A stretch of 64,000 bases of DNA from Candidatus Omnitrophica bacterium UBA6253 (GCA_002441245.1 DJVP01000005.1:66303-130302); one strand, 5' to 3'; positions 21,501 through 64,000 are shown, counted from the first letter of the stretch. The notes: a model not told the origin generated them from the letters alone. A program made the numbers and translations.

Positions 21501-21529
21501 TAAGACCGAGATTAAAAAGGAGGCGAAAA

Positions 21530-23135: not shown

Positions 23136-23144
23136 AATACAGAT

Positions 23145-37533: not shown

Positions 37534-37565
37534 AAAACAGGTAAAGTACCACGTACTATTAAAAT

Positions 37566-37739: not shown

Positions 37740-37793
37740 GAAGAAAAATAAAAGTACCACGTACTTTGTGAGAAAAAAGAGGTTAAAAGCAAA

Positions 37794-39205: not shown

Positions 39206-39720
39206 AAGCAGCCATATTGATTTTAACGGTTTATGCTGCATTTTTATTGGCGTTTCCAACCAATACTTATTGTGAGGACAGTCCGTCTTCGGGTGTAATT
39301 ATAATTGGTTCTTCCGAGGCCAGTTCATCTGAAAATCAAGGTTCCGAGAATCTTTCTTCCGGTAGCGAAGACTCTTCTAAGCCGGCGGCAGATGAACCAG
39401 CTGCCGCTCTTCTTTATGAGATTAGCGGCAGCAAAATAGGAAGTACCAGAGTTTCGCAGGAGGTCACCCTTCCATCAGCCGGGGAGGTTATGTTTGTAGA
39501 TGCCGGGATAACAGGAGCTTGTACCATTGTCCGGGTTGATAAAAACGGAAAAGAAACGCAGGTGTTAAACATGATCCCGGATCGGGCGATTGGGCAAAGG
39601 CTGCCTAAGGGTACTTATAAAGTGTACCCTGAGGATTTAGATGGCAGTTTTCCGCTTGATAAACTGACGGCAAAAGTACAGGTTAAACTGATTGAAGGTA
39701 CAACAGGAGGCGCGCAATGA
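39202..39720 (+). CDS. Hypothetical secreted protein with a Ser-rich linker.
   Basis: Signal peptide MKAAILILTVYAAFLLAFPTNTYC, then a Ser-rich low-complexity segment (SSEASSSENQGSENLSSGSEDSSKP) and a beta-rich C-terminal domain. Overlaps upstream by 4 nt. Confidence 0.45.
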   Translation: MKAAILILTVYAAFLLAFPTNTYCEDSPSSGVIIIGSSEASSSENQGSENLSSGSEDSSKPAADEPAAALLYEISGSKIGSTRVSQEVTLPSAGEVMFVDAGITGACTIVRVDKNGKETQVLNMIPDRAIGQRLPKGTYKVYPEDLDGSFPLDKLTAKVQVKLIEGTTGGAQ

Positions 39721-40376
39721 GGAAGATATTAATATGCGTAGTCTCATTATTGATGCTGTTTCTAAATGCAGGCGTTATTTATGCAGGCGCCTTTTTATCT
39801 CCGGAGAAGACAAAAGGGGCCCTCAGGGAAGAGATTCCCAATGAGGGTTATGAAAATGATTCAGCGGATAAAAAAAAGGCTTTTGAAAATTTTAAGGCTA
39901 CAAGAAAACTGTTATATGAAAAAATGATTAAGCGCACCGGCGACTGCAGGGATGAGTTGGATAATATGTTTCTTATGGTAAACAACCTTTTTAAAAAGGC
40001 TCGCGAGGAAAAAGATATTAAAAAAGAAAAAGAGCTGGTTACGGTGATGAGCGATTATAACAGCGTGCTTGGTGACTTGGGGCTTATGCAGGTAGTTTTA
40101 GACCTGGGGAAATTCGCTGAAGGCGATAAGTTTATAGAATATTATGTGGTTATGGAAAACGGTTTTGAGCGGTTGAAGGGAAACTTCAGCTTAAAAAATG
40201 AAATATTCTTGGGCAGGATAGATGCTTTAACGAATCAGGATGCCTTGCGTTATGAGAAAAAGCTCTTAAGGATCTATAGGGATTATTTTGAGTATGATCC
40301 AAAGATTGACAGGATGGTTGAGATAGAAGATGCGCCTAAGCAGGAAAAAGGCAAGCTTAATAAAAGGGGAGGATAA
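39717..40376 (+). CDS. Hypothetical secreted alpha-helical protein.
   Basis: Signal peptide MRKILICVVSLLMLFLNAGVIYAGA. Overlaps upstream by 4 nt. Confidence 0.45.
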   Translation: MRKILICVVSLLMLFLNAGVIYAGAFLSPEKTKGALREEIPNEGYENDSADKKKAFENFKATRKLLYEKMIKRTGDCRDELDNMFLMVNNLFKKAREEKDIKKEKELVTVMSDYNSVLGDLGLMQVVLDLGKFAEGDKFIEYYVVMENGFERLKGNFSLKNEIFLGRIDALTNQDALRYEKKLLRIYRDYFEYDPKIDRMVEIEDAPKQEKGKLNKRGG

Positions 40377-40378
40377 AG

Positions 40379-43300
40379 GTGTCCGGGCGTAATCTAAAGA
40401 ATATAGGTATATATCTTGCGATCTTAGCCGCAGCTATCTGTTTGCCGGGCGACCGTTTAAACAGCGCGGATGCGCTTTATACATTTACCCAGTCAACCTG
40501 GAGCGCTGGCCAATCCTCTGCAAGCGCTGTCCATCCTACAAACCAGTCAAGCTGGGACTCTTATTACTCAAAAGATGATTATGCAACTACCACGGAAACC
40601 GACGGGTATTTGACTCTTGCTCCTGATACAGCTACTTTAACCGATACTACGGATGTGGATTTTGATAAAGGTGAGATGGAAAAGGTGGTTGTGGATGGTA
40701 CCGGCAATGATGCATTGTTACAGGTTACTCCTTCTGTGGCAGATCCGTTTGCCTCAACACTCGGAGAATGGCTTACCCTGCCTGCGCAGCCAAGGCCGGA
40801 CAGGTTTACGGTATTTTGCCGGGCAGGCACGGTTGTATATTGCCTATTTGCAACAGGAGACGGAAGGCAGTTCGGGAAATTTATTCCGGCTACGGGAAAA
40901 TGGGTAATGCTTGCTCCTTTACCGGCGCCGGCTGCTGCCGGCTGTTGTATTGCCTGGGACGGAGAGGCGGTTTTTGCCTTGCGCGGAGAGGGTTCTAAAC
41001 AGGTATATAAATACACCCCTTCAACTGATACCTGGGCGGTTTTTACTTCTTTATCAAAGGGCGTAGAATACGGGGCGGCAATATGCGCCACAGGGATTAT
41101 TTCTACCAAGGTGGGAAAATTATTTGTCCTTTTAGGCGGCAATACCACAGATTTCTTATGTTTTGACCCTACTATAGGAACATCCGGCGTATGGAAAGGC
41201 GCATCCAGCGCTCCGGCAACTGTAGAGGCTGGAGGCAGGTTAGTTTATCCGGGCTCAGGGAATTACATTTATGCCTGCCGCGGCCAGTCAACAAGTACTA
41301 TCTGGCAGTATAGTATCTCTGCTGATGCCTGGGATACAACGACTCCGGATCTTCCCGTACCAACTGAAAGTACAGCAGGTTATGAAGCAAGGATGTGGAG
41401 CGCCTCAAATATGTTTTGGCCGGGAACAGGGGATTATATATATGCGGCTATGACATATTATTGCTATAACAAGTCCAACATAACTAATTACCAGACATTC
41501 TGGCGCTTAGGGCCGCTTAGCGGTACGCCTGCATGGGAAAGGCTGGCAGATTGCCCGCGTTATACCGATAATAAAGGGTTTATTTTATATGACCCTGACG
41601 GCGCTGGAACAGAGATACAGCTTCTTTCAGGAAATAACTATACCAATCCCTGGCATTATAATATTGCCAAGAATAGATGGAAGGAGTTAACTCAGCCTCT
41701 GTGGAATTCATCCAGTTGGGGTAGGGATATATATTGGGTAAAGAACCATACTCATTCAGATATTGTTTTAGGCTCAGACGGGTTTGATTATATATGCATA
41801 CTCGATCATACTTCCAGTAATCAGACTAAGCCTGTAACCGGGGCCTCATGGGAGACTTACTGGAGGAGGTTAAACCCGTATGATACAAAATCCTGGGCAA
41901 CAGGCACAGTTTATGCAGAAGGGGATATAATTACAGGCACAGACAGCCTTGATTACAGGTGTATAAGGCGCCATTTATCAGCTGATACAAATAAACCTAT
42001 AACCGGGGCTTCATATTCCACATACTGGCAGACCCCTGCCGTAACTACAAGAGGCTCTGCCTGGATAAATGCCAAGGCTTATGTATCCGGGCCTTATGAT
42101 GATTATCTCTATTGGTGGGGAGGATATTATAATTACAATTTCTGGAGGTATAAAATATCAACGGATACATGGGAGCGTTTGGCTGATTTGCCCTGGAGCG
42201 GCAGTTATAGCGGTGCGAATATGACAGATATAGGGGACGGATATTTATATTTCCACAGAGGGAATAACGGTTATAATTTCGCGCGTTATAATATGTCGAC
42301 TGATGTATGGGAGACGCTTACAGATTCACCTAATTCTGCCGGTTTTGTCTATGGTTTTGGGGTGATAGGGGTTATATCAAAGGCTGACCGGGTTCTAGGC
42401 AGTGATGGCCTTGGGTATATATGTAAAAAGAGGCATGTCTCAAGTACACTTAATAAGCCTATAAGCGGGGCTAACTGGGCAAAATATTGGGAGCTTAATG
42501 GCTCGACCACTGATTGCGTTACTTGGGTTGAGTCTAAGGATTATGGCCCGGGATTAGAAAATATCAAGCCGTCAATAGTAGTGGGTACTGACGGTAATGA
42601 TTACCGGTGCATTAAGAATCATATATCCGCAACTTCCAGTTGTCCAATTACCGGCACAACCTCTACCTGGCAGACTTATTGGGTTGCTACAGGGACAACA
42701 GGGCAGGGTGATACATGGGCAAGCGGAACCATGTATAACTCGCGCACCGGCACAGTTGGCCATTATAAATTTATTTTTGGATTTCCAGGTTATAGCACAT
42801 CTTATTGGTACCGGTATGACCCGATAGATAATACCTGGCTTACTTGCGAAAATGTGATTACTTCTATTTATGGAGGTGAGGCTACTTGGACAGGGCTTAA
42901 TGCTCCTGATAAAGGAAGATATATTTATCTGGAACGAGGGCATGGGGGTACATATTTCTATCGCTATGATATTGAAATGGATGGCTGGGTCCGTAAAACA
43001 GATAGTTTTATCCCTACCTATTATCATTATTCGGCAGGAGGGCTGGCAAATGACGGAAGCTCTCAATATATTTACCATTTATCCGGTTATCATGAAACGC
43101 CTTATGATTACAGGCTTGAGAGGTATGACACATCAACTGATTCCTGGAGCGAATTTGCTTCCTTACCGTTTTGTTCTATATACAGGGCTGTATGCCAGAC
43201 TCCGGATGCTATATGGGCATCCCCGTATTACGGCAATGACCAGTTGATGAAATACGATTTGACAAAGCCTACGCATAACCAGCCGGGTATTTGGGAAGAG

Positions 43301-58300: not shown

Positions 58301-61300
58301 TATCTGGTCAGTCCTACTGACCGCTATACCTATTTATGGAATACTGGCTGGACATATATAGAACTTAAATTAAAAGAGGGAGTTATAGCTAATACTACCG
58401 ATACTATCGTGTTGGGGTCAGTGAAAAATCCAAGTTTTGTACAGCAGACCAGCGAACATCAGATTACAAGTTTAAGTACGGATGCCACAGGCAATGCGAT
58501 TATAGACCAATCTACGCTTACCGGCCTGGTAATTATCGGTGGAAAACTGACCGGCGTATCTGTCAATACTACTAATAATATTGTTACCGAAACTTCAAAT
58601 TACACAATTAACCTTACAACTAAGAATCCAATGTCGCTTAATCCTTCGATCAAGGTGCGTTTTGATGCAGATTATAATATATCGGGGGCTACTTTTGTTT
58701 CCGGAACAGTCGATGGGGCAGCTATGGTCACGCAGGCTACTCCCCTTACCATAGATGCAGTTAATAATATTGTGACACTTGGGCTTGCTATGGATATAAC
58801 CAACTCTACAGCTGTTATATCTTTTACTCTCTCGGGTATTGTTAACCCTAAGTATGAACAAGCAGTGGAGTTTGATATAACTACCCAGTATGGCGGTAAT
58901 GATATAGATATTACTGATCCGGCTGCCAAGCCTGTAGTGTCTATATCCGCAGGCGCCATAACCGCTGCGAGCGTTAGCCCGGTTACAACAGAGGTAAGTG
59001 AATCCGGAAATTACACATTTAATTTTACTCTGCCGCATGTTTTGTATACGGGAGGTTTCTTAAGAATACAGTTTGACGCGGATTATAACTTGACCAATAC
59101 CAACTGTCAGACAAGTGGTTATTCATTGTCAAAAGGCGCAGACTATATTTCCCTGCAAAGGACAGGTGCGCAATTAACAGGCAGCCAGAGTTTAGTTTTG
59201 GGTAATGTTAAAAACCCTTCCTATATTCAAACTACCGGTAATTTTGTTATGCGTACAGAGGATTCGGCGCATAACAAAATTGACGGGGCGGAGATTGCGG
59301 GAGTTACAACAACAACCGGTACTTTAACCGCTCTTTCTTTGACGCCGACTGATTCTACTGTGGCAAATACCACCTCTTATATTATAGCCTTTACTACGGA
59401 TCATGCGATAGTGCAAAATGGCAAGGTTGAAGTTACCTTTGATTCTGATTATACGTTAACCGGCGTAGGGGCCAATGATGTTTCAGGCAATGCAAACTCA
59501 ACAGTGGCAGTAAGCGGCAATAAGATGATCATAACATTAGGTACTGCCGTAGCCGCAGCAACGCCTGTATCTTTGCAGGTATCGAATATTGTGAATCCAA
59601 CTTATGTTAAGACTACTAACAGTTTTGCATTTGAAACAAAAGATGCTACGGCAGGGCTTCTGGACCAGGGGACGGCTTCAGGCATAACAACCGTAGCCGG
59701 TACATTTACCGGGGTAAGCGTAAGCTCTAACTACTACACTACGGGCAAGTCCGATGTTTCCTATACATTTAATTTTACGTACGCGCATGATGTACCTCTG
59801 GATGGATTTTTGAGGATAGATTTTGATACTGATTATGATACGTCTGCTGTTGCGGTAGCGCACGCTGATTACACAAAGCAGGAGGCCGGAGCTAATTATG
59901 TGGTATTAAAGTTGCTTGCGGCAAAGGCAAAAGGAACAGTAGAGTCGGTAGTATTAAGCAATATCAAAAATCCAGGGTATGCCCAGACCGTAACTTTTAA
60001 TATCAAGAGCATGAACACGGCAGGTTCTGTGATTGATATTGTTACTACGCCTTCGCTTGGCATTGTCCCTGCCAGCCTTACGGCGCTTACCAGGGGATCG
60101 AATAGTTATATTGCAACTGAAACAGCTACCTACACAGTGAACTTTACTACATTTAATGCGATTCCCGCAGGAGGAAAGGTTGAGATAGCCTTTGATTCGG
60201 ATTATGTATTAACAGGGGTAGGGGCTAATGATGTTTCAGGCAATACAGGCTCAACAGTAGCCGTAAGCGGAAGTACTTTAATTGTAACTATAGGTACTGA
60301 GATTCCCGCTTCTACTGCGGAAAGTCTGTCTATAGCTAATATCAAAAACCCAGGTGCTCAGACTACAGGCAGTTTTTCTCTGCTTACTAAAAATGCCTCC
60401 GGATACAGCCTTGACCAGGGTACTATAACAGGAGTAACTATCACTACCGGTTCCTTGAGCGCCCTTACTACGACACCCGTGCATACCGAAGTAAGCTATA
60501 GCACTAATTATACCTTTGGTTTTACTGTTGGGCATACAGTACCTGTAGGCGGGTTTATCAAAGTGCAGTTTGATAGTGAATATGATCTTTCTTCAGCTTA
60601 TGTGGTAGGTGATTATACAATATCCAAGGGGGCTAATTATGTTTCATTGCAAAGGAATGTTTCTGCTTTAACCGGCGCCATCACAGTAGAGTTGAGGAAC
60701 ATTAAGAACCCGTCTTATGTCCAAACCACAGATACATTTATTATAACCACGGAATTATCAAATCATGATTCCATAGATGTGGGGAACGCGCCTGCTATAA
60801 CTACAACAGCCGGAACATTAACATCTACAAGCATTGTGCCTGCGACAACTATTGTGGCAGAGCCGACTTCTTATACGCTTAACTTTACCACCGACCATGC
60901 TATAGGACAATATGGCATGGTGGAGGTTAGTTTTGATTCCAGCTGTGATATATCCCTGGTTTTCCCAGGTGATGTCAGTGGCAATGACGGTTCAACAGTG
61001 GCAGTAAGCGGAAATAAATTAATCATAACTTTAGGCACTGCCTTGGATGCGGGCGTGTCAGAAGAATTAGTAATCTCGAATATTACAAATCCTACTTATG
61101 TGAAAACCACGGATACTTTCTTTGTGCAGACTAAAAATCCTACAGGCGGAGTTATAGATGAAGTGACTGCTGCCAGCATAACTACCATTACAGGGGCATT
61201 AGGGTCGCCTTCTGTTACTCCAGCTTCTTTAGTTTCCGGCGCGACAACATCTTATGCCTTTGTATTTACACCGGCTCACGCCGTGCCCTTGAATGGTTAC

Positions 61301-64000
61301 TTAAGGATTGATTTTGACACTAGTTATGAACTTGTCAGCCCGGGAGCAGTGGTTATGAGCAGTACTACTCCATGCGATATTACTTTAAGAGGATCAGGCT
61401 ATTTATTGATTAAATTTCCATCTTCCGGATTGAGTGCCGGAGTAGAACAGTCGATAGAGATAGCTAATGTGGTAAACCCGCCGAATGTTAAGGATCTTTC
61501 GTTTACCCTCATGACTAAGGATACTTCTTTGTATGATATTGATACTGCAAACGTAACCGGCCTTAGTACTACTGCCGGCAGTCTTACCAGCGCAACTTTG
61601 AGCGCAACTACTTATGTTGTTTCAGAGTATGCTACATATATGGCTTATTTTACAACTGCTAACCCTATAGCAGCCGGCGGAAAGGTTGAGATAACTTTTG
61701 ATACTGATTATAATTTGTCATCAGTTGAGTCTACAGATGTATCCGGTAACGCTAGTTCAACAGTAGCGGTAAGCGGTAGCAAGTTAATTGTAACTATCGG
61801 TACGGCTGTTGCCAAAAATACCCAGGTTTATTTGTCCATAGCAAATATCAAAAACCCCGTATACGTGCAGGCTACTGATTCATTTTTAATCCAGACCAAA
61901 ACCGCAAGCGGGGCTATTATTGACACAGTAACCGTGACATCTTTAAATATAGTAACCGGTTCATTAAGCGGCCTGTCTGTAACTGCTGTATCCAAGAAAA
62001 TATCAGATATTACGTCTTATACGTTTAATTTTACGGTACAACATGTCGTTCCCGCGGATGGCTTTATAAGGATCCAATTTGATAGTAATTATTCGTTAGG
62101 AAGCGCTTATCTTGATACGGCCAGTTTCTACAGTTTGCAAAAGGGGAGCGATTACCTGAAGTTTAAGACAGTCTCGCAGATAAATGCCGGCCAATCAGTG
62201 AGTATTCCTATAAGCATGATTGCTAACCCGTCCTATGTGTATACTGTAAGCAATTTCCAGGTAAAAACTTTAACTGCTGTTACGGAGACCCAGCAGATAA
62301 TGGATTCAGGCGTTATTGCCGGTGTTACTTTGACTGCAGGAACCCTGTCCAATATTTCTGTAACACCGGAATCCACAGAGGTAAGCGCACTGACGAGCTA
62401 TACCTTTAATTTCAAGACAGAGAACAGTATTGCTGCCGGTACCGGTAAAGTGGTAATTAACCTTGATAGTGATTATGATTTAAGTGCTGTACAATTAGAT
62501 GATGTGTCGGGAAATGATAATTCGATAGTATCGGTAAGCGGCAATAATTTGGTTGTGACACTGGGCACGGCGGTAGGTTCATCTACGAGTGTCTCCCTGA
62601 TAATCTCCCATATTAAGAATCCTCCTTATGTCCAGACTACAAATAATATAACAATTACCAGCAAGGTTCAGATAAGTACGGTAGATTATGACAAGGATAG
62701 CGGTATTCTCACTCCTGGCCCTGTGATAACCTCGGGCAGCTTTGCCAATGTATCTATAAGCGCTACTTCGCAGGTGGCCGGTGAAGAATCTATTTATACT
62801 TTTGGATTTGCCCCAGCCCATGATGTGGCAGCCGGAGGGCTTCTCTATATTGTGTTTGAATCCGGATACGATGCATCTGGCGCCTATATTACTGGTTCAA
62901 CAGGGACAGGAGTATACGCTGTTTCAAGCTTAACTGCTAATTTGGTGACTTTGAATGTTGCTGCAGCTTTAAACGCGACAGAGGTTCAGACTATTAGTTT
63001 AGGCGGCATAGTTAATCCAGCATTTGTAAAAGATGTTTCCTGCACGATTAAAAGTGCCAATGCCTCTTCTGGCATAATAGATGAAGGCGATACTCCTTTA
63101 TTTAGCATAACACCTGCTCCGCTGGCCGTTTTATCTATAGGCGGATCTTCTTATGTTGCCAGGGATTTGACATCATATACTATTGCCTTTACGAGTATTA
63201 ACCCTATTGACCAGGGCGGAAAGGTAGAGGTTGAGTTTGACGCGGACTACGATTTAACCGCTATCCAGTCGAATAATGTTTCGGGCAATACAGGCTCAAC
63301 AGTAGCCGTAAGCGGCAATACCTTAATTATAACCCTGGGTACGGCAGTTTCTGCCGGAGGGTCGGCTTCCCTGACTGTCTCTAATATTAAAAACCCGGGT
63401 GTCCAAACAACCAGTAATTTTAATCTTATAACCAGGAATTCAAGCGGCAATCAGCTGGATTATGGTTTGGTTGCAGGAAAAAATATTACCGCCGGAACAT
63501 TATCGGGCCTTTTGGCAACTCCCGGCACGGCAGAGATTAGCGAAAGCACTACCTATAATTTTGGTTTTACTTTAGGGCATGATGTGCCTACCAATGGTTA
63601 TATAAGGATACAATTTGATGACAATTATACCTTGACCAACGCCACGGTAGTAACCAGCGGGTATTCTTTAACTAAGGGTGCCAATTATGTTTTACTTAAG
63701 AGGACGGGTTCGGCATTAACAGGCGCAATCTCCATACAGCTTAACACTATTGTTAATCCGGCTTTCGTATCCAGTACCCTTGCGGGATTTTCCATTCAGA
63801 CACAGTTGTCTAATAATCAGGTAATTGATACGGGTATCGCAGCAGCAGTCACTACAACAGCAGGTGCCTTATCAGCTACATCAGTTATACCCACTTCTTT
63901 GGGTGTAAGCACCCTGGCTGATTATACATTTAATTTCACTACGGATCATGCCGTGCTAGGAGGCGGCAAGGTCATTATTACCCTTGATTCTGATTATGAT
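40379..64000 (+). CDS. Giant secreted multidomain surface protein. The gene is 3'-incomplete: there is no stop codon from 40364 to the window end, giving at least 7,874 codons. The start is a probable GTG at 40379, two nt after the upstream stop, with RBS AGGGGAGGA.
   Basis: The +2 frame was translated by eye across the whole span and spot-checked at 49382, 53822, 57002, 60002 and 63902; all checks fit the domain repeats and no stop was met. N-terminal signal peptide NLKNIGIYLAILAAAICLPG. Domains are listed separately below. The ORF track omits it because it has no in-window stop. Confidence 0.85.
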   Translation, partial: MSGRNLKNIGIYLAILAAAICLPGDRLNSADALYTFTQSTWSAGQSSASAVHPTNQSSWDSYYSKDDYATTTETDGYLTLAPDTATLTDTTDVDFDKGEMEKVVVDGTGNDALLQVTPSVADPFASTLGEWLTLPAQPRPDRFTVFCRAGTVVYCLFATGDGRQFGKFIPATGKWVMLAPLPAPAAAGCCIAWDGEAVFALRGEGSKQVYKYTPSTDTWAVFTSLSKGVEYGAAICATGIISTKVGKLFVLLGGNTTDFLCFDPTIGTSGVWKGASSAPATVEAGGRLVYPGSGNYIYACRGQSTSTIWQYSISADAWDTTTPDLPVPTESTAGYEARMWSASNMFWPGTGDYIYAAMTYYCYNKSNITNYQTFWRLGPLSGTPAWERLADCPRYTDNKGFILYDPDGAGTEIQLLSGNNYTNPWHYNIAKNRWKELTQPLWNSSSWGRDIYWVKNHTHSDIVLGSDGFDYICILDHTSSNQTKPVTGASWETYWRRLNPYDTKSWATGTVYAEGDIITGTDSLDYRCIRRHLSADTNKPITGASYSTYWQTPAVTTRGSAWINAKAYVSGPYDDYLYWWGGYYNYNFWRYKISTDTWERLADLPWSGSYSGANMTDIGDGYLYFHRGNNGYNFARYNMSTDVWETLTDSPNSAGFVYGFGVIGVISKADRVLGSDGLGYICKKRHVSSTLNKPISGANWAKYWELNGSTTDCVTWVESKDYGPGLENIKPSIVVGTDGNDYRCIKNHISATSSCPITGTTSTWQTYWVATGTTGQGDTWASGTMYNSRTGTVGHYKFIFGFPGYSTSYWYRYDPIDNTWLTCENVITSIYGGEATWTGLNAPDKGRYIYLERGHGGTYFYRYDIEMDGWVRKTDSFIPTYYHYSAGGLANDGSSQYIYHLSGYHETPYDYRLERYDTSTDSWSEFASLPFCSIYRAVCQTPDAIWASPYYGNDQLMKYDLTKPTHNQPGIWEERVYDTCYSSYADGNIAVDSNGYNYMIFGDMYYYTNSNIWIFDTNAKQSKIVGSDGADYDCILSHTSSADNYPTTGANWTTYWQTSRSTGKGVIWTDSTGYYCSKHANRWSGLIRAPFYLGPGTKGQYMANENSIYFLEGKNTKYVWQYDITNDRWLRAKDTLTVVNRGSELTGGCGVNISGHESPRDVLFCLGGNGATQFNLYFVEPGYDYWTSYLSALDGHSYRGTNSMTYSSYDNRVYKLRTEITSTCYVYNPEQDTWGTINPVGTGGSSGTTYTCDESAVLYYPNDGQKYVYCMTGDGNYSLLRYDIDNLTWEELEPPPAVISSYGSAMSSVGNDYIYIFNATQMDYLFRYHKTENEYDIPAYLPVALDEGGVICGYKGNIYYLCGDSGAFYRFNIGQKKWGVLATCPSTMPNEDPCMKAVEYEGDVSIYVTGGQGTQTFYRYSVANDAWETLEPPSYSWGWGNAIEHVYGSRYIYAMRGGAVSFWKYDIANNDWDTLADLPTTVGRGGALTYPDKGNYLYALSGNRSSNFYRYNYTTDTWTTLNPCMVKILDSHSELIYPGFGNYLYVLHGSSWGDSYESYTYMRYEIKSDGTGTWSELAPASFGVDHPGSMIWPGGEYYYATKGNGRLELAMYYAFCYGTYISGIKPVGAHSGWGNVSWTFNDTQAAEVSFRSGNKTDLSDALSWDLCSDIVNGADLSTASSISAQDVYIQYKIGFSTDNLLQLPKISDVNINYEFYPLKQEVVSSPYNTSFATNRLVKFEWADQQLTGTDVRFKIRTGADLASLLTASWYGPAGTTIEQFTFNDKEDYVANSEVFFTGSSIKLYKKLADFTYSETLYVDNTGGAAKTDSVVSIIISSTNNHFWNHIKSDGADMRFHDGTQELSYYLVSFDSVNKVAEINVHFPSIGANSIKTFYMVYGSEDALSASDATYVSKPGDGLVGYWKFDEGAGLMAYDSSGNGNTGALYPTTKNMPTWDSNGKYGSCIYFDGIDDYVRVTVPDLGTDYTMAFWGTIDEVPIASNSWQAAMGSQTSYPVVWLNPNNWMYHYWYDSKNASHGDNFSYHTKRDEVWRHYVVIHDALGYRAYTDAALNRDYRSFIYTSRDVPSMQWDFGRYFNSTSYNWKGKLDEIVLYNKALTGIEVGYLYQGISRDFTYGVTFGSNETDATCASLVSGGWQKKIPVQVTNAGGLKSNAIIRIDLGKWYEFWAHVKSDGSDIRVVDSDDSTVLSYYIPEWDYANKKGFVLAKTASLAASSTKTVYIYYGNSSAVSAADSSSFMGLEEGFNSCNQVAGDSTALSGWLYKIPLMLKNDSGAPQGQALVVGTDGKDYKCIKSHSSTTFDKPNVGANWATYWQDNSTTGKGVTWATGIAYSSSPAVVRVDMEDSWDNFWANVNSDGSDVRIVASDNETVMTYFLDFFDADLKQGSFLVSVPFINTAAEQKYWLYYGKSDATSLSTNSFLNPLKQVSSTPTQVSRSGATFNPDWQYKMDFTVSNVSTDPDNVVNRCVNIQIPSTWTSFWSNVRSDGGDIRFYDENVTSGDPTYLYYDIDYFDYDKKTASIDVRIQSQNTVPITTWPRTISLYYGNPLVLTDFNNIYNAYDLYMYSAVDETRFTAGGAATSDKSPIINQGYVTLYNNSDAWDSYIKWNGTAFARTAGRTFQAKIYPSYNAQVMIGWKDNEIGVSYSNLIYGIYFNNGSMYIYEDGSNVYSCGTYIRDTWYDIRIELKVMGALYYYKKSEDVDWTLLYTSTYSTESNLRPHIVNDRRDYFTRTTDWKVFLNMTYDVTVGLGDIIKGITNTFSLNEYYQDNPVIQPLGGVFYDSNLASIVETSTVPAGSGLKHQISPDAWNWYWYNSTAISKVVGTDNKDYKCILSHTSSDSTKPITGALYETYWQDNSTTGTGSVWASGTAYNSISTGWNLATAGYTQANTGAEINTNLASFQTLFPSGSLNFRTYLHSNDGTYTPELDNIAVALNASETFYTAKDGADAINALNCDIANDQWVQYKAILYSDGRNTPTVSSVTLTYTDAWLNITAPNGGESWLEGTAHNITWTSQGIDAGASNVKLEYSPDNEATWKTIIASTPNTGTYTWTLPNDPGLLTKVRITSIEYPNVVDKSNTTFRLMGAEITSPNGGNIWELGRSHAITWNSGGTLGSSTLKFEYSIDGGSTWVSPEIASGQTDDGDLTWNITTSTSYASDNVKVRMTDTDNTQVDDSSDAVFALVPQPAITFTYPLGAEQLKVGAQCNITWTTNSQQFGSQFDLYYSKDGFTTETYIATVSSGAPASPLTPNTDLSCSYAWTVPDDLSDNVTIRVREVSVPTGRDTTTKVSKVSSIFEIVDPKITLTSPNGGELWVKEETNNITWTSEGTIHSGSLALQYSMDGGSNWITITGFDGINDGLFAWTIPTDAVSDLCKVKIKDTARTTVSDVSDNTFKIIPSATIEVRSPNGGEIWTIGDTYTITWAVAGQITGHDVTIEYSKDNFVNDINLIKSSTPNDGSETWVGVPNDPSADVKIRITSIQDPTITDISDAVFTICTSGITVISPNGGELWEVRNASDATQTIHNIKWVSGSGVPDGTTDIVLKMSTNSGSSYDTTIATGRAKTGLYPWSVPDSVSSQVRVKAYSFGTPTKTDESNADFSIVPVPKMTITSPLSTGLTVWKVGASYNITWTKVGNLSSTVDLYYSINGSTPTTVIAKGVSNSGTYSWRVPNVGLTSLAKVKVIESTIPVRDTIKKIESTSSVFTIVDPTLTITSPNGAASINDAEAWVQSEQNYITWTPDGLVSNGLLIEYSRDSGSSPTRYTIYDGIVPGTGLTPGSNYARAVTINNTASALSLENYQVKFTLDTSSLISAKMRADGYDIMFADEDEVCPYWIEPGTINTTQTKIWVKVPQIPAGATKKIYMYYGNPNATVNQNFDNTFIKNVINDDIAGYWHFDEGAGTVAYDASGTGRDLSVVGATWHTADGGRWSTQKSVSFNTGSCLIFDGNDYAGYSDNIITDPQKFSVEAWIYPTDVTTEGYIVQKTGDTSSYSLKIAAGGSLQFCIYDATNTPQIASGNEALSAGIPYHIAGTYDSTDGLVKLYIDGALQVSTATATEINTTSAPFKIGDTFKGRIDEVSIYNKALSLAEITAHFERRQYASTAPATPVVAAEEPINKYLWTIPSDPADLSQYVKVYITDRNTVVGGSTISDASDNYFSIISYPRVIIKQPNGGEVLTTADSYDITWRYDGNIGKDTDYMTLDYSIDGGTNWVTPAINDYVLNRNGTFTWLSIPDAPSSDVRVRIRHNSDPLVVDVSDASFKIQGKLILPSVDHLPQFTEVQGGSTEYIYWDTVGTINQVILQYSKDGFVSDVHTIVEGLANSGSYLWTVPRDCSESVELRVINYVDADVYDVSEVFTIKGLTLTSPNGSENWAIATVHNITWSSVSLQSSNVKLEYSVDNGTTWDEIIASTPNTGSYSWTIPNNGVSDGEALVRVSDASLSGVWDISNANFTITAGALSGITIQPVSNIARSTTNYNIDFTVQSPIPADGDVEIVFDADYNISAAAVSLPTDGTSIVSKLNNCLVINLATAIDEGTQSVYQYRRLINLSSATTIANYQVQVDLTAADFDYGHAKSDGGDIRFYDTAMNTLDYWIETWVSGGTSKIWVKIPNIGTTSFYIYYGKADAITTSSIDATMDAGLRFKYYDGIAFADPSLGNAIDTDINHDWGSDVVSINGVGTDSDTLSIRWEGWVKNKGSGTHNFYTTTDDGARLYVNDTLVINHFIDQAETEYVAAVSLSSVVPIKFEYYENTGSAVAQLGWAPADSTGKVYPIPSTYLYCHKYSASAPTLTMDDETAVPAGKAVSLVISGIKNPAAQITDSFFIETQDAEDRAMDRGTTDGLTIVPGTISPTVTSGSLKVSTLTSYGFIFTPAHTVEAGGKVVIGFDADYDLSAVGASNITGNTGATLSVDNSAKIITVNLGSGITSTATLTIANIKNPPYVQTTQAFSVATKTAALNTIDQGVAAGVGITAGTLSSLSVSAASLEVSAVTDYNFGFTTEHALAAGHKVSIQFDPDYDLTGVGVSSVGGNSGSTVSVNGNILTVTLGESIPATTAEVLTINNIKNPSYVQTVNNFSIISKDPNEEIIDQATISGVTTVAGNFNATVSISNVSSDKTGATLVQYTFNFTPIHSVAAGGTVRIDFDADYNTSSASLISPSSDYTINSRGSNYVILNLVNALETGVAEAIRLGNITNPAYVQSVTFSISTYNASGRVDSGTSPNFSILASVLVNCSVTPSSYIATETSTNYIAFAPVNPLSIGDLVEITFDSDYVLTSAVFSSGNSGATLSISSNKLIVTLGTAIESLTPATFAISGIKNPGAQVTDYYSIVTKKSTGEIRDENSQVAKNTIVTGTLTSLSVSSSTTEVSERIEATPYLSFNFTLAHELPVGGYVKIYFDPDYVFQVDTFCVTNDYNLSKDDTNKIISLQRTSSAVQTGATTIQLANIKNPPYVQTTGNFLIRTELSNQTAIDVGSASGIGITAGALTGITLTADSAIVSEFTTYALDFTSDHAVEAGGKISVAFDTDYEFKLSGRYACVVSMVDSSLTIIDISTSAGPTLVSEISDGTGGFTKLAGVKSVYVSGNYVYAVSSIDSSLTIIDISTPASPVLVSEISDGTGGFTKLDGAQSVYVSGNYAYVAASTDNALTIIDISTPASPVLVSEISDGTGGFTKLGGAKSVYVSGNYAYVAASTDNALTIIDISTPASPVLKSEVYDGDGEFSRLAGIESVYVSGNYAYVSSSTDSSLTIMDISDPANPVLKSEVYDEDGQFTKLGGAYSTYVSGNYAFVASATDSSLTIMDISDPVNPVLKSEVYNGDGQFTKIGAPLAVFIYGDQVVFGNNAGATVASSGNLLNITLGTAVGSNQAVSLELDNIRNPYYVQTPEVFQVQTKNSAGGVIDQNLSVASTSIVKGSFTGLSVAAVDREISKSDNYTFTLTYSHPVPKDGYLKIEFDTDYDLSSAYLVSPTDRYTYLWNTGWTYIELKLKEGVIANTTDTIVLGSVKNPSFVQQTSEHQITSLSTDATGNAIIDQSTLTGLVIIGGKLTGVSVNTTNNIVTETSNYTINLTTKNPMSLNPSIKVRFDADYNISGATFVSGTVDGAAMVTQATPLTIDAVNNIVTLGLAMDITNSTAVISFTLSGIVNPKYEQAVEFDITTQYGGNDIDITDPAAKPVVSISAGAITAASVSPVTTEVSESGNYTFNFTLPHVLYTGGFLRIQFDADYNLTNTNCQTSGYSLSKGADYISLQRTGAQLTGSQSLVLGNVKNPSYIQTTGNFVMRTEDSAHNKIDGAEIAGVTTTTGTLTALSLTPTDSTVANTTSYIIAFTTDHAIVQNGKVEVTFDSDYTLTGVGANDVSGNANSTVAVSGNKMIITLGTAVAAATPVSLQVSNIVNPTYVKTTNSFAFETKDATAGLLDQGTASGITTVAGTFTGVSVSSNYYTTGKSDVSYTFNFTYAHDVPLDGFLRIDFDTDYDTSAVAVAHADYTKQEAGANYVVLKLLAAKAKGTVESVVLSNIKNPGYAQTVTFNIKSMNTAGSVIDIVTTPSLGIVPASLTALTRGSNSYIATETATYTVNFTTFNAIPAGGKVEIAFDSDYVLTGVGANDVSGNTGSTVAVSGSTLIVTIGTEIPASTAESLSIANIKNPGAQTTGSFSLLTKNASGYSLDQGTITGVTITTGSLSALTTTPVHTEVSYSTNYTFGFTVGHTVPVGGFIKVQFDSEYDLSSAYVVGDYTISKGANYVSLQRNVSALTGAITVELRNIKNPSYVQTTDTFIITTELSNHDSIDVGNAPAITTTAGTLTSTSIVPATTIVAEPTSYTLNFTTDHAIGQYGMVEVSFDSSCDISLVFPGDVSGNDGSTVAVSGNKLIITLGTALDAGVSEELVISNITNPTYVKTTDTFFVQTKNPTGGVIDEVTAASITTITGALGSPSVTPASLVSGATTSYAFVFTPAHAVPLNGYLRIDFDTSYELVSPGAVVMSSTTPCDITLRGSGYLLIKFPSSGLSAGVEQSIEIANVVNPPNVKDLSFTLMTKDTSLYDIDTANVTGLSTTAGSLTSATLSATTYVVSEYATYMAYFTTANPIAAGGKVEITFDTDYNLSSVESTDVSGNASSTVAVSGSKLIVTIGTAVAKNTQVYLSIANIKNPVYVQATDSFLIQTKTASGAIIDTVTVTSLNIVTGSLSGLSVTAVSKKISDITSYTFNFTVQHVVPADGFIRIQFDSNYSLGSAYLDTASFYSLQKGSDYLKFKTVSQINAGQSVSIPISMIANPSYVYTVSNFQVKTLTAVTETQQIMDSGVIAGVTLTAGTLSNISVTPESTEVSALTSYTFNFKTENSIAAGTGKVVINLDSDYDLSAVQLDDVSGNDNSIVSVSGNNLVVTLGTAVGSSTSVSLIISHIKNPPYVQTTNNITITSKVQISTVDYDKDSGILTPGPVITSGSFANVSISATSQVAGEESIYTFGFAPAHDVAAGGLLYIVFESGYDASGAYITGSTGTGVYAVSSLTANLVTLNVAAALNATEVQTISLGGIVNPAFVKDVSCTIKSANASSGIIDEGDTPLFSITPAPLAVLSIGGSSYVARDLTSYTIAFTSINPIDQGGKVEVEFDADYDLTAIQSNNVSGNTGSTVAVSGNTLIITLGTAVSAGGSASLTVSNIKNPGVQTTSNFNLITRNSSGNQLDYGLVAGKNITAGTLSGLLATPGTAEISESTTYNFGFTLGHDVPTNGYIRIQFDDNYTLTNATVVTSGYSLTKGANYVLLKRTGSALTGAISIQLNTIVNPAFVSSTLAGFSIQTQLSNNQVIDTGIAAAVTTTAGALSATSVIPTSLGVSTLADYTFNFTTDHAVLGGGKVIITLDSDYD
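40900..45200 (+). other. Region of about 16 Kelch-type beta-propeller blades with five interspersed CBM5/12-like (ChtBD3-like) modules.
   Basis: Blade motifs such as YIYACRGQSTSTIWQYSISADAWDT, LYFHRGNNGYNFARYNMSTDVWETLTDSP, IYAMRGGAVSFWKYDIANNDWDTLADLP. CBM5/12-like modules, e.g. LGSDGFDYICILDHTSSNQTKPVTGASWETYW at about 41767-41875 and VVGTDGNDYRCIKNHISATSSCPITGTTSTWQTYW at about 42580-42690. The other three are at about 41935, 42395 and 43450. Confidence 0.6.
45860..48700 (+). other. Four DUF2341 modules and two LamG-like (concanavalin-A-like lectin) jelly-roll domains, with two more CBM5/12-like modules at about 47270-47410 and 48890-49035.
   Basis: DUF2341-like segments: FWNHIKSDGADMRFHDGTQELSYYLVSFDSVNKVAEINVHFP...FYMVYG; WAHVKSDGSDIRVVD...VYIYYGNS; FWANVNSDGSDVRIV...YWLYYGKS; FWSNVRSDGGDIRFYD...ISLYYGNP. 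LamG: LVGYWKFDEGAGLMAYDSSGNGNTGAL...CIYFDGIDDYVRV...KGKLDEIVLYNKALT. Confidence 0.6.
49390..51690 (+). repeat. Eight tandem Ig-like domains of about 100 aa, Kre9/KNH-like, with a period of about 295-310 nt.
   Basis: Each unit follows I[TS]SPNGGE.W..G....ITW[TN]..G.....V.LEYS.DGG.TW..I......G.Y.WT.P.......V[RK]. Units begin near 49399, 49693, 49990, 50338, 50641, 50935, 51250 and 51556. Confidence 0.65.
51780..52710 (+). other. A DUF2341 module followed by a LamG-like domain.
   Basis: MRADGYDIMFADEDEVCPYWIEPGTINTTQTKIWVKVPQI...IYMYYGNPNA, then IAGYWHFDEGAGTVAYDASGTGRDLSVVGATW...LIFDGNDYAGYSD...GRIDEVSIYNKALSLAEI. Confidence 0.6.
52905..53770 (+). repeat. Three more Kre9/KNH-like Ig-like domains.
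   Basis: IKQPNGGEVLTTADSYDITWRYDG...LDYSIDGGTNWVT...; ...YIYWDTVGTINQVILQYSKDGF...GSYLWTVP; LTSPNGSENWAIATVHNITWSS...VKLEYSVDNGTTWDEIIASTPNTGSYSWTIP. Confidence 0.6.
54050..54720 (+). other. A DUF2341 module (about 54050-54310) followed by a PA14 domain (about 54340-54720).
   Basis: DUF2341: DFDYGHAKSDGGDIRFYDTAMNTLDYWIETWVSGGTSKIWVKIPNIGTTSFYIYYG. PA14: FKYYDGIAF...SIRWEGWVKNKGSGTHNFYTTTDDGARLYVNDTLVINHF...VPIKFEYYENTGSAVAQLGWAP. Confidence 0.65.
54740..64000 (+). repeat. Array of at least 27 tandem domains of about 105-110 aa (period about 320-340 nt), of unassigned beta-sandwich/Ig-like type. It continues past the window end.
   Basis: Recurring unit: ...G.L..LSV.......VS....Y.F.FT..H.V..GG.V.I.FD.DYDL......V.GN.GSTV.VSGN.L..TLGT.......L.I.NIKNP.YVQTT..F...T.......ID.G... 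The [IV]KNP[SP]YVQTT motif recurs about every 330 nt, e.g. near 55218, 55600, 56757, 58030, 59210, 60705 and 62615. Confidence 0.65.
57030..57900 (+). repeat. Five to six LVIVD-type beta-propeller repeats. They are encoded by near-identical direct repeats of about 180 nt inside the giant gene.
   Basis: Protein units YVSGNYAYVAASTDNALTIIDISTPASPVLVSEISDGTGGFTKLGGAKSV repeat. At nucleotide level 57361-57540 is essentially identical to 57181-57360 (ATATATCTACTCCTGCCAGCCCGGTGCTTGTCTCTGAAATCTCGGATGGGACAGGAGGATTTACTAAATTAG...). The flanking copies are more diverged. Confidence 0.7.

Follow-up and report, generated by a model that had tools for sequence, protein, structure and literature searches.

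A giant gene in an uncultured Omnitrophota bacterium, probably encoding a fibrillar adhesin and preceded by a predicted c-di-GMP-I class riboswitch

The surface display of the adhesin LapA is governed by c-di-GMP through LapD/LapG, and adhesins of this type, which carry RTX repeats, lack a Sec signal and are exported C-terminus-first by a T1SS. At the RNA level, c-di-GMP-I (GEMM-I) riboswitches are found before gbpA in Vibrio cholerae (Vc1) and before the flagellar operon in Clostridioides difficile (Cd1). Giant proteins of the Omnitrophota have already been described (West-Roberts et al. 2023, 10.1101/2023.11.21.568195; Nielsen & Lui 2026, 10.64898/2026.06.07.730766); their genes adjoin T2SS/T4P-like genes and have been linked to c-di-GMP via PilZ/GGDEF. 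The gene reported here encodes a further example of such giant bacterial proteins, a class recognised only recently. A riboswitch, Kelch, LVIVD or a Y1-like partner gene is mentioned in neither paper, and DUF2341 is absent from the first.

The window, the whole stretch of 64,000 nt that was analysed, carries on its plus strand a reading frame that is open from a GTG at 40379 to the window edge at 64000. As the initial annotation had claimed, translation from this GTG in frame +2 gave 7,874 codons and 0 stops, the last in-frame stop on the 5' side being the TAA at 40361-40363. At the regional base composition one stop is expected per ~17 codons, or ~470 by chance over the ORF (log10 of the probability of finding none, about -210), and each of the other five frames contains 326-732 stops in the same stretch. 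The GTG lies 2 nt past the TAA (40374-40376) of an upstream 219-aa ORF (p219) and is immediately preceded by AGGGGAGGA, in line with the strong ribosome-binding site proposed there. The accompanying statement that the ORF track lists only minus-strand shadow ORFs over this region was right save for one plus strand ORF of 125 aa in another frame. The giant ORF is a real gene and not a product of chance.

The assignment to the Omnitrophota comes from exact matches to neighbouring proteins, which NCBI lists in Omnitrophota MAGs; the phylum, like the operon and the riboswitch described below, had gone unnoticed in the initial annotation. Orthologues in ten GTDB species representatives (other Omnitrophota) are collinear with the giant gene at 62-87% identity, and none meets a stop before the retrieved DNA runs out, over as many as 2,954 visible codons; one orthologue fragment, P0003, is 87% identical and spans aa 3942-5655. 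Two complete orthologues, known as gene calls, are 12,503 and 12,855 aa long, and ~4,600-5,000 of their residues lie past the visible part. The best explanation is that the visible ORF would be the 5' two-thirds of a gene of ~12-13 thousand codons in an uncultured Omnitrophota bacterium, a total length that is derived solely from the orthologue gene calls. The expectation that the full gene could be far longer than 7.9k residues is therefore borne out by both complete orthologues as regards greater length, but not on the scale of the 40-147 kaa Omnitrophota giants. For the 3' end, an exact 60-nt search with the last bases of the window gave no match in genome or metagenome contigs, the last 999 aa, used as a query for homologues, brought up no more than three partial proteins (40-43% identity), and an exhaustive search of species representatives returned no full-length orthologue.

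The giant protein begins with a Sec-type signal (aa 1-31, 40379-40471 including the start codon), in which R/K is followed by the hydrophobic stretch IGIYLAILAAAICL and then by ...SADA, as expected from the signal peptide announced in the initial annotation. The Cys that closes the hydrophobic core and the motif ...PGD..SADALYTF are kept in nine orthologues. This conserved Cys is a candidate site at which the protein may be lipid-anchored; the residue at its -1 position is V, I, L or A, which is atypical for a lipobox. A hydropathy scan of the 7,874 aa revealed no TM helix beyond the signal segment and only two marginal beta-strand-like stretches. The protein is repetitive, Thr/Ser/Gly-rich and Cys-poor.

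Pfam and iterative HMM mapping confirmed the previously described mosaic of propellers, lectin-like modules and long Ig-like tandem arrays, and recovered all six Pfam families named at that stage (Kelch, CBM_5_12, DUF2341, Laminin_G_3, PA14 and LVIVD). All modules are read from the plus strand. A Kelch-type propeller region of at least 17 blades (aa 191-1593, 40949-45157; Pfam Kelch_6 E 1e-23, Kelch_1 and Kelch_4) with CBM5/12-like modules between the blades is followed by four DUF2341 domains and a ConA-like lectin domain, Laminin_G_3 (aa 1849-2594, 45923-48160; Pfam DUF2341 E 3e-26, Laminin_G_3 E 2.5e-10). Next come an array of eight A-type Ig-like units of ~100-105 aa detected by periodicity (49352-51811; Kre9_KNH-like, Pfam E 1e-13), the copies of which have a median identity of 33%, and a second DUF2341 and Laminin_G_3 module (aa 3833-4105, 51875-52693; Laminin_G_3 E 2e-26, DUF2341 E 2e-17). 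HMM matches then place three A-type units and the first B-type unit (aa 4161-4586, 52859-54136) ahead of a DUF2341 plus PA14 carbohydrate-binding module (aa 4591-4790, 54149-54748; Pfam PA14 E 4e-12), which matches the PA14 domain of RsgI3 (6qe7, E 7e-24) and is the sole match in a search of PDB sequences with the whole visible protein. B-type array I, with ~6 units of ~125 aa (54932-57001; HMM matches E 1e-30 to 1e-48), is separated by an LVIVD beta-propeller of six 50-aa blades (57002-57892; Pfam E 1e-54 in 6 stretches) from B-type array II (57908-64000), in which 16.5 units of alternating X and Y subtypes form a ~250-aa super-repeat that is still open at the window edge. In total, the visible protein has at least 17 Kelch blades, 6 LVIVD blades, two Laminin_G_3 domains, one PA14, seven CBM5/12-like modules, six DUF2341 domains, 11 A-type units (100 aa) and ~23 B-type units (125 aa). 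The B repeat, the dominant unannotated unit with only a weak Pfam match (DUF2808), was modelled as an Ig-like beta-sandwich with a pLDDT of 97, in line with the Ig-like character assigned to the repeats beforehand. Its structural neighbours include pilins and fibrillar adhesins, for instance the Gram-negative fibrillar adhesin domain 9ifr.

We consider it probable, with the adhesin role read from this domain content, that the product is a giant fibrillar, multivalent carbohydrate-binding adhesin encoded in an operon under predicted riboswitch control. The protein would be exported by the Sec pathway via its N-terminal signal peptide and would fold outside the cytoplasm as a very long, mostly beta-stranded fibre, in which at least 34 Ig-like domains form a stalk broken by the Kelch and LVIVD propellers and by lectin-type glycan-binding modules. 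Its most likely task would be to attach its cell, which is small and probably depends on a host, to a second cell or to a surface. The signal peptide, the module content and the Ig-like repeat model favour the initial reading as a typical giant extracellular adhesin or cell-surface protein; the adhesin role rests on domain families, and DUF2341, LVIVD and the B repeat are families without demonstrated function. Taking ~4 nm as a general figure for an Ig-like domain, a fibre of at least 34 of them could span on the order of 100 nm or more, near the size of the cell itself, which is notable in the Omnitrophota since these are tiny and probably host-dependent; a fibre comparable in size to the cell would therefore be a strong candidate for a host-contact organelle.

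Two other functions would be compatible with parts of the same architecture. CBM5/12, PA14 and Laminin_G_3 modules often accompany glycoside hydrolases, and the protein might be a scaffold for the degradation of prey cell walls, an enzyme-bearing giant like the 'Archaeovorins' whose catalytic domains lie beyond the window edge; we regard this as improbable. The C-terminal third of the protein, in which the orthologues have their ~4,600-5,000 further residues, lies outside the window and could hold catalytic domains, membrane anchors or SecA-like domains. Such a role has been proposed for Omnitrophota giants by West-Roberts et al. (10.1101/2023.11.21.568195), who also note T2SS-like neighbours. 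Against it, the Pfam scan found no catalytic family in the 7,874 visible aa, PA14 was the only domain matched in the PDB sequences, and the TM, SecA, GT and methyltransferase features of Archaeovorins were not seen in the visible part. Moreover, 12 complete paralogues (4-5 kaa) share the N-terminal module, each with 12-15 A-type units, and are built from propeller, lectin and Ig-like modules with a C-terminal coiled coil and no obvious enzyme domain, a judgement made by reading the sequences, one C-terminal region only having been scanned against Pfam; the Pfam scan of their conserved C-terminal domain returned nothing. The second function, a structural protein of the envelope or matrix (an S-layer-like coat, a sheath or a biofilm scaffold) in which the repeats build a surface lattice, is likewise unlikely. 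It would account for the repetitive, Cys-poor composition, LVIVD repeats and Ig-like arrays are found in archaeal and bacterial surface-layer proteins, and control by a c-di-GMP class riboswitch would suit a matrix component equally well. The fibrillar adhesin remains our preferred reading.

The giant gene is predicted to be the last of a conserved, translationally coupled five-gene operon. The four ORFs on its 5' side overlap each other by 4 nt, the stop codon of the fourth lying just before the giant GTG, and this order recurs in at least 15 loci. The first gene (37794-38786, +) encodes a 330-aa Y1-transposase-like protein (Pfam Y1_Tnp E 4e-9) with a C-terminal TM helix and a coiled coil. 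It is followed by p140 (38783-39205, +), a secreted helical protein of 140 aa whose predicted HdeA-like fold makes it a candidate periplasmic chaperone, by p172 (39202-39720, +), also secreted, which has a Ser/Glu-rich linker, a C-terminal domain of ~100 aa that is conserved, and orthologues in all loci, and which is joined by start/stop overlap, and by p219 (39717-40376, +), which is secreted, charged and probably helical. Neither p172 nor p219 matched any Pfam family, and profiles of p140, p172 and p219 found nothing significant among PDB sequences.

The Y1-like gene heads the cassette in every locus, that is in at least 15 loci and species. Among ten aligned orthologues, the HUH motif reads ESH in 7, ESF in one, QVN in one and HLH in locus L008, so that the first His is lost in 7 and both His in 2 more. 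Phe stands in for the putative catalytic Tyr in 8 of the 10, and the Tyr is kept (..Y[MV]H.. motif) in L008 and L017; both HUH and Tyr are intact only in L008. With catalytic positions assigned by reading of the alignment and not from a structure, the protein is probably catalytically dead. A reading as an insertion sequence, or as an IS200/IS605-type Y1 transposase or RayT, was rejected in view of the fixed synteny and the degenerate catalytic motifs: the gene is placed in a non-mobile manner at the operon head, and its product is fused to a TM helix and coiled coil. This case calls for caution before 'transposase' genes flanking giant genes are taken as evidence of mobility.

The region upstream of the operon contains a compact set of regulatory elements. 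Just 5' of it lies a MerR-type HTH gene of 75 aa (37306-37533, +; Pfam MerR_1 E 9e-8), which gene calls place identically in ERZ1426844 and in locus L022; the only MerR_1 gene of L020 lies farther away on the 5' side, before the gene of the ExeA-like ATPase. A sigma-70-like promoter, TTGACA-16-TATACT with a TG extension (37566-37593, +), matches at 11 of 12 positions, is the best promoter-like match in 31.5-41 kb and is kept in sequence across most orthologous leaders. A palindrome, AGTACCACGTACT, is present as box 1 at 37545-37557, 8 nt 5' of the -35 element, and is repeated exactly as box 2 at 37753-37765, between the terminator and the ribosome-binding site, where it could fold, within the 5' UTR, into a hairpin of 7 bp. 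Box 1 lies 71-79 nt (mostly 72) 5' of the aptamer start in 10 of 11 loci scanned, with a degenerate copy in L008 and a related palindrome in L020, and box 2 lies 134-139 nt 3' of the aptamer start in all 11; the stem of box 2 shows a compensatory change in L008 (GTGC..GCAC), and the whole box is inverted in L016.

The aptamer (37616-37694, +) is of the c-di-GMP-I class (Rfam RF01051) and matches the model over its full length (positions 1-87), scoring 59.9 bits where the gathering score is 35 (E 3e-9). It is present in all 13 related leaders examined, with 55-67 bits in the orthologous ones; RF03167, a variant in clan CL00126, scores best in L014/L022 (same contig), L020 and L024, which are three distinct loci. 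Most aptamers have GGC in place of the consensus GAC, and literature searches yielded no ligand for the c-di-GMP-I-GGC variant. The aptamer sits on the sense strand in the 5' UTR, behind the promoter and ahead of the first operon gene (37794). After it comes an intrinsic terminator (37706-37739, +), found in all 13 leaders, with the arms ACCCCGGT and ACCGGGGT, the loop TGGTGAGTTT and a run of nine T. Positions 37717-37726 (TGAGTTTACC) are complementary to the aptamer 5' strand at 37626-37635 (GGTAAACTCA) and make up a predicted antiterminator, the pairing of which survives in L008, where both sides have changed (GGCAAACT/AGTTTGCC), and in L016, where it includes a G-U pair. Another hairpin, at 37881-37902 inside the Y1-like ORF, was rejected as the riboswitch terminator because ~190 nt separate it from the aptamer and L008 does not conserve the peptide encoded there.

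Combined, these elements predict a c-di-GMP-I class riboswitch with OFF logic. Transcription would start at the sigma-70-like promoter and run through the aptamer and then the terminator, whose loop and 3' arm could pair with the aptamer 5' strand instead. Binding of the ligand would lock the aptamer, so that the terminator forms and the operon is off; without ligand, the antiterminator would allow read-through. The terminator and antiterminator folds differ in energy by at most ~3.7 kcal/mol, and the ON/OFF assignment is not secure because the minimum-energy fold in most leaders already includes the terminator. The riboswitch cassette appears undescribed. It would link second-messenger signalling to the expression of a giant protein at the RNA level, and the conserved cyclic-dinucleotide riboswitch with its clean terminator means that this regulation can be tested in vitro, with no need for a culture of the organism.

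HUH/Y1 domains recognise nucleic-acid hairpins; since box 2 can fold into a hairpin that is conserved in the 5' UTR, and its exact copy lies just 5' of the promoter, an exapted Y1 domain could bind the boxes. There is, in our view, a small chance that the riboswitch, the two palindromic boxes and the degenerate membrane-anchored Y1-like protein make up a new control-and-delivery module for giant surface proteins. The Y1-like protein might then bind the boxes to hold the gene or the ~40-kb mRNA at the membrane, which would couple transcription, translation and Sec export of a chain of 12,000 residues, or might act as a ToxR-like membrane-bound regulator, with the cyclic-dinucleotide riboswitch, possibly a variant of altered specificity, gating the process. 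In L024, a distant paralogous locus, a Y1-like gene, a riboswitch and a giant gene are likewise paired, which suggests that such a module would be older than the giant gene family.

Further upstream lies a module of four plus strand genes, which conserved synteny marks as a candidate for the outer-membrane passage or anchoring of the giant protein. Its first gene encodes an ExeA/GspA-like AAA ATPase of 287 aa (32210-33073; Pfam AAA_22 E 7e-19), of which an identical protein was named 'general secretion pathway protein A' by JGI and whose position is conserved in L020 and L022. A 221-aa membrane protein follows (33034-33699) that is weakly GspC-like (Pfam T2SSC E 0.0034, below the curated cutoff) and is kept between ATPase and secretin in related loci. 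The secretin itself (553 aa, 33700-35361; Pfam Secretin E 9e-47, Secretin_N, STN) is matched in position by ORFs of 530-557 aa in relatives, called secretin in L020 and L022 and left unannotated, at 538-557 aa, in L010-L013, L016, L017 and L019; a TPR protein of 410 aa with multiple TPR Pfam matches (35358-36590) is coupled to it and conserved beside it. No GspE, GspF or pseudopilin genes were found in the window, and no secretin is known to let a fibre of 12,000 aa through. Type I secretion by way of the TolC/HlyD/ABC genes at 0.9-7.2 kb was considered and rejected: the ABC parts are of ABC-2/DrrA type, the genes are 33 kb away, and the giant itself carries a Sec signal.

Gene callers and short-read assemblies systematically miss giant genes or cut them short; the present gene is well supported and is seen together with its regulatory and accessory context. 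An assembly artefact behind the ORF is unlikely because the only DNA-level tandem repeat in the giant gene is at 57053-57890 (period 150 nt, or 50 codons, 80-90% identity; TRF), the other repeat copies have diverged to at most 78% DNA identity over at most 200 nt, and contigs from five other samples match the window at 99.5-100% identity across 27.9-50.4 kb, this independent match reaching position 50376. Two short-read contigs with gene calls of 5,499 and 5,581 aa stop at ~57.1 kb, the start of the 150-nt repeat; from ~57.9 to 64 kb, continuity comes from the window's own assembly and from homologous repeat arrays elsewhere at 37-43% identity, with no independent identical contig among those retrieved. 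The residues G10, F33, H39, G45, N100, P101 and D122 are invariant across repeat units and thus point to selection on them. That the long ORF nonetheless stems from chimeric joins or collapsed repeats in the assembly, or is a pseudogene left open by luck, is highly improbable: the contig ends at the 150-nt repeat, the span from 57.9 kb without an identical contig, and an in-frame TAG in one relative and a split gene call in another speak for it, but they are outweighed by a chance of about 1e-210 for so many open codons, by a repeat period divisible by three with the remaining repeats too diverged in DNA to collapse, by the open frame in ten species and in the two complete orthologues at ~12.5 kaa, and by the selection on repeat residues.

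Compared with other Omnitrophota giants, and especially with their 'tandem-repeat scaffold' class, the protein shares the phylum, a length above 10 kaa in the orthologues, extracellular repeats with Laminin_G_3 (PF13385), repeats that are old and DNA-diverged, T2SS-like secretin neighbours and a link to c-di-GMP. That class comprises proteins of at least 10 kaa; here 7,874 aa are visible in a frame that is still open, with complete orthologues of 12,503 and 12,855 aa, and the visible part is dominated by repeats (~23 B and 11 A units, median amino acid identity 33%, and 0.8 kb of DNA-level tandem repeat). It differs from these giants in that Pfam found no GT, GH, methyltransferase, peptidase, NUDIX or SecA_DEAD domain in the visible 7,874 aa, in that the neighbouring module has a secretin without GspE/GspF, and in that the visible part has only the N-terminal signal segment, in contrast to the many TM helices of the Archaeovorin type. 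'Dockerin-type' giants have Dockerin and TSP3 repeats, whereas no Pfam Dockerin_1 or TSP3 match occurs in the visible part.

With fibrillar adhesins, whether Gram-positive pilins and MSCRAMMs or Gram-negative giants, the protein has in common a tandem Ig-like stalk, candidate adhesive modules of lectin type and a signal peptide. Its length far exceeds that of most such adhesins, its propellers are embedded within the stalk, and its visible part shows no recognised anchor (LPXTG, autotransporter barrel or T1SS signal). The RTX adhesins LapA, MpIBP and SiiE likewise have multi-thousand-residue Ig-like stalks and sugar-binding modules. Unlike LapA-type adhesins, the present protein has an N-terminal Sec signal and no RTX/HemolysinCabind match in its visible part, and its predicted control is transcriptional, via a riboswitch, as opposed to proteolytic release. 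Compared with Vc1 and Cd1, the leader differs by its phylum, by a predicted transcript of ~40 kb, by GGC for GAC in most aptamers, by RF03167 as the best model in three loci and by an antiterminator that uses the aptamer 5' strand and the terminator loop. It shares with them a full-length RF01051 match followed by an intrinsic terminator, the predicted terminator-type OFF logic resembles that of Cd1, and the predicted cargo, as with gbpA behind Vc1, is an adhesin with chitin-binding-type modules.

Translation of the + strand from the GTG at 40379 to the end of the window gave 7,874 codons without a stop, as the initial annotation had claimed. The base composition of 40379-64000 leads one to expect a stop per ~17 codons, that is ~470 stops, and the probability of finding none is ~1e-210; the five remaining frames of the same segment contain 326-732 stops. 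The nearest in-frame stop upstream of the ORF is the TAA at 40361-40363. The GTG lies, where it had been placed, two bases 3' of the TAA at 40374-40376 that closes a 219-aa ORF, and AGGGGAGGA is found directly 5' of it. Because the ORF listing demands an in-window stop, the giant ORF does not appear there; the minus-strand shadow ORFs said to be the only entries of this region are indeed listed, together with one short out-of-frame ORF. All ORFs annotated or treated as genes in the window are on the + strand, and the listed minus-strand ORFs overlap them and look like shadows.

One genome per GTDB species was scanned with the most conserved accessory protein, which yielded ten loci; seven are in Omnitrophota/Omnitrophica MAGs, and the MAGs of the other three bear the label 'uncultured Planctomycetales'. 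The giant gene is preceded by a cassette consisting of a Y1-transposase-like gene and the p140, p172 and p219 genes. In seven of the ten loci, the ORF following the cassette is open to the end of the fetched DNA, over up to 2,954 codons, and these seven ORFs are collinear with the giant protein at 62-87% identity; in the other three, the fetched DNA stops inside or just past the cassette. Gene calls gave complete orthologues of 12,503 aa (JGI Ga0302250_1000002, 833 kb) and 12,855 aa (GCA_028716965.1, JAQUOV010000001.1). Judging from these lengths, ~60% of the gene is probably visible in the window, which fits the proposal that it is longer than the visible 7.9k residues. A 60%-identical orthologue, L008 (JGI 3300035537 Ga0376499_001091), carries at its position 17683 an in-frame TAG in place of a Tyr codon of the window (~aa 2608), past which homology resumes; read-through, a nonsense mutation or an error in sequencing could account for this TAG. 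In the ENA relative ERZ1426817 the gene is divided between two overlapping calls, of 921 and 1,393 aa. A partial protein annotated at NCBI as 'Candidatus Paceibacterota bacterium' (P0003) is 87% identical to aa 3942-5655 of the window protein, and its source contig is probably mis-binned.

The visible protein starts with a signal peptide (aa 1-31), whose hydrophobic core is closed by a Cys kept in all nine orthologues examined, and continues with a conserved N-terminal segment (aa ~40-190) common to the wider family. In aa 191-1593, CBM5/12-like modules are interspersed among at least 17 Kelch-type blades, and four DUF2341 domains with Laminin_G_3 occupy aa 1849-2594. Ig-like units of two types follow: eight A-type units (~100 aa, Pfam Kre9_KNH) at aa 2992-3811, then, after DUF2341 and Laminin_G_3 at aa 3833-4105, three more A-type units at aa 4161-4461 and the first B-type unit (~125 aa) at aa 4462-4586. 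Beyond DUF2341 and PA14 modules (aa 4591-4790) are found ~6 B-type units (aa 4852-5541), an LVIVD propeller of six blades (aa 5542-5838) and 16.5 B-type units running from aa 5844 to the edge, in which two alternating subtypes form a ~250-aa super-repeat. The signal peptide and the mosaic of propellers, lectin-like modules and Ig-like arrays described in the initial annotation were both recovered in this domain map (Kelch, LVIVD, Laminin_G_3, PA14, A- and B-type units), and every family that it had named for HMM searches (Kelch, CBM_5_12 as CBM5/12-like modules, DUF2341, Laminin_G_3, PA14 and LVIVD) was found. Sequence relatedness to PDB entries is confined to the PA14 part, which matches the PA14 domain of the anti-sigma factor RsgI3 (E 7e-24). 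No transmembrane-like helix besides the signal peptide was seen in the visible protein.

An exhaustive search with aa 1-1200 returned 1,645 related representatives. Many complete relatives of 4-6 kaa (among P0160-P0218) have the N-terminal ~450 aa in common at 34-38% identity. In each of the twelve paralogues fetched, the C-terminal part is a conserved coiled-coil region without a Pfam match, with the terminus ...KPVTQTW[YF]E[YF][KR] or a near variant. Since these paralogues carry 12-15 A-type units each and zero B-type units, the B-type array, the LVIVD propeller and PA14 appear to be additions particular to the ~12.5-kaa clade. At the distant paralogous locus L024, a Y1-like gene and a c-di-GMP-I-GGC aptamer lie upstream of a 5,121-aa relative, and a Peptidase_MA_2 gene and a GGDEF response regulator lie downstream of it.

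The four ORFs upstream of the giant gene in the operon (37794-38786, 38783-39205, 39202-39720 and 39717-40376, all +) show successive 4-nt overlaps. The order Y1_Tnp-like (~320-330 aa), ~140, ~172 and ~219 aa, giant gene is kept in every related locus with readable DNA or a gene table (L008, two ENA contigs, L009, L010-L019, L020 and L022); the cassette of L008 is 60% identical and has two additional genes, and those of the two ENA contigs are 32-38% identical. The product of the first gene (37794-38786) matches Pfam Y1_Tnp (E 4e-9), has a transmembrane helix and a coiled coil, and is labelled 'transposase' or RayT in NCBI. In 7/10 aligned orthologues the HUH motif has lost its first His and reads ESH, and both His are gone in two further ones (ESF in L017, QVN in L016); the putative catalytic Tyr is Phe in eight of the ten and is retained in L008 and L017, so that both motifs are intact in L008 only. 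An insertion sequence or other mobile element was considered for this gene and rejected, given its fixation at the operon head in all relatives and its degenerate motifs. Because its position is fixed, the Y1-like domain is read as exapted, and it is probably inactive. The most conserved member of the cassette is p140 (38783-39205), a secreted protein of 140 aa with invariant DGYWW and NPLDIKMDKS motifs, whose predicted fold resembles those of the periplasmic chaperones HdeA, HdeB and YmgD.

An Rfam search over the whole window returned a single family, the c-di-GMP-I aptamer, matched over its full length at 37616-37694 (59.9 bits compared to a gathering threshold of 35). Upstream of the aptamer, at 37566-37593, is the region's best match to a promoter (TTGACA-16-TATACT, TG extension), and downstream of it is an intrinsic terminator (ACCCCGGT/ACCGGGGT + T9, 37706-37739); the aptamer is present in 13/13 related leaders examined, L024 included. 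The aptamer 5' strand (GGTAAACTCA) has its complement in the loop and 3' arm of the terminator (TGAGTTTACC); this antiterminator pairing is altered on both sides in L008 (GGCAAACT/AGTTTGCC), kept via G-U in L016 and has one mismatch in L017. The difference between the aptamer-plus-terminator and the antiterminator fold is at most ~3.7 kcal/mol. As there is no overlap between the terminator and the ligand-bound aptamer, the sole consistent logic is an OFF switch in which the ligand leads to termination, and we regard this with moderate confidence as the mode of control; GGTAAACTC and GAGTTTACC would then both be needed for switching. Confidence is limited because the default fold of most leaders has the terminator (the antiterminator is within the minimum-energy structure in 3/13), and because most aptamers have GGC in place of the consensus GAC and, at three distinct loci, the top score is that of RF03167, a variant model with a putative ligand.

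Two identical 13-nt palindromes (AGTACCACGTACT), box 1 at 37545-37557 and box 2 at 37753-37765, flank the promoter-riboswitch-terminator unit. Box 1 is located 71-79 nt upstream of the aptamer start in 10 of the 11 loci scanned and is degenerate in L008, and box 2 is located 134-139 nt downstream of it in all 11; L008 shows a compensatory change in the box stem, and L016 an inverted box. With at most one substitution allowed, the only further match in the window lies at 54952, inside the giant gene. The gene directly upstream of this unit (37306-37533) encodes a 75-aa MerR-type HTH protein, which together with the Y1-like protein is a candidate box binder. It is one of two paralogous 75-aa MerR_1 HTH genes, of which it heads the riboswitch operon and the other (31926-32153) the secretin module; no box with at most one substitution is found near the latter.

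The secretin module, located upstream of the operon and conserved in related loci, encodes an ExeA/GspA-like ATPase, a weakly GspC-like protein, the secretin and a TPR protein. On the basis of synteny, the module is the natural candidate for taking the giant protein across the outer membrane or anchoring it there; GspE, GspF and pseudopilin genes are absent from the window. Directly upstream of the module, 22143-31685 holds a complete Bat/MoxR-type cluster (MoxR AAA_3, DUF58, TPR-rotamase, BatA/BatB-like VWA proteins, TPR protein, BatD and TPR-SH3 protein), the rotamase of which (PF13145) recalls the conserved PPIase near giant genes in West-Roberts et al. (10.1101/2023.11.21.568195). In a large sensory block 18 kb upstream (14736-21922), three single-domain response regulators accompany a PAS/CHASE4 protein (1,027 aa) and a dCache-HAMP histidine kinase (961 aa), and L008 likewise has a Cache/PAS kinase pair directly upstream of the cassette. 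GC skew is positive in each 2-kb bin (0.01-0.28), which with the co-orientation of the genes fits a long leading-strand block; inside the giant gene it falls from ~0.15 to near 0 beyond ~48 kb.

The giant gene is real, conserved and Sec-signal-bearing, and its product is all-beta, repeat-rich and without membrane spans in the visible part, with lectin-type and propeller modules set within Ig-like arrays. We infer that it is a giant fibrillar, multivalent glycan-binding adhesin on the cell surface: periplasmic helpers would be co-produced with it from the five-gene operon, the adjacent secretin module would help to export or anchor it, and a cyclic dinucleotide would switch the operon. A rival reading is that of a degradative scaffold, the enzymes of which would lie in the unseen third of the protein; no catalytic family was detected in the visible protein. 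The same product could also be a structural coat or matrix protein.

The sole tandem array at the DNA level is found at 57053-57890 (Tandem Repeats Finder; period 150 nt, or 50 codons, 80-90% identity), and every other repeat pair in self-BLASTN has at most 78% identity and a length of at most ~200 nt. At the protein level the mutual identity of repeats is only ~33%, and they are therefore ancient duplications and not collapsed reads. Contigs of five other samples (two JGI metagenomes and three Logan assemblies) are 99.5-100% identical over the readable 27.9-50.4 kb, and two of these short-read contigs, with gene calls of 5,499 aa and 5,581 aa, both end at ~57.1 kb, where the 150-nt repeat starts; up to ~57 kb, continuity thus has independent support. 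Between 57.9 and 64 kb it is based on the assembly of the window itself, homologous arrays in P0001 and P0002 (37-43% identity), the kept frame and conserved unit residues. That the giant ORF is an artefact or a pseudogene is effectively excluded. Short-read assemblies of the same population (SRR13427965 and SRR13427971) are interrupted exactly where the 150-nt LVIVD tandem repeat lies, and its copy number at 57053-57890 in the window is provisional.

Giant Omnitrophota ORFs have been on record since 2023 and were catalogued in hundreds of genomes by 2026 (10.1101/2023.11.21.568195; 10.64898/2026.06.07.730766), and the giant ORF itself is unsurprising to a specialist. Neither of these two papers mentions a riboswitch, Kelch or LVIVD, and a full-text literature search returned no paper that connects c-di-GMP riboswitches to Omnitrophota. 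What seems new is that the operon is conserved and riboswitch-controlled, that a degenerate Y1-transposase-like membrane protein is fixed in it and that one accessory protein is HdeA-like; together these features make regulation of the giant gene testable in vitro. The adhesin reading agrees with the general picture in which Omnitrophota giants are extracellular proteins, associated with secretion systems, that serve host-dependent cells in attachment (10.1101/2023.11.21.568195; 10.64898/2026.06.07.730766). In its visible part, the giant protein differs from the Archaeovorin type, whose enzyme, SecA and transmembrane features it lacks, and from the Dockerin type, whose Dockerin/TSP3 repeats it lacks; the best fit is the 'tandem-repeat scaffold' class of Nielsen & Lui (10.64898/2026.06.07.730766).
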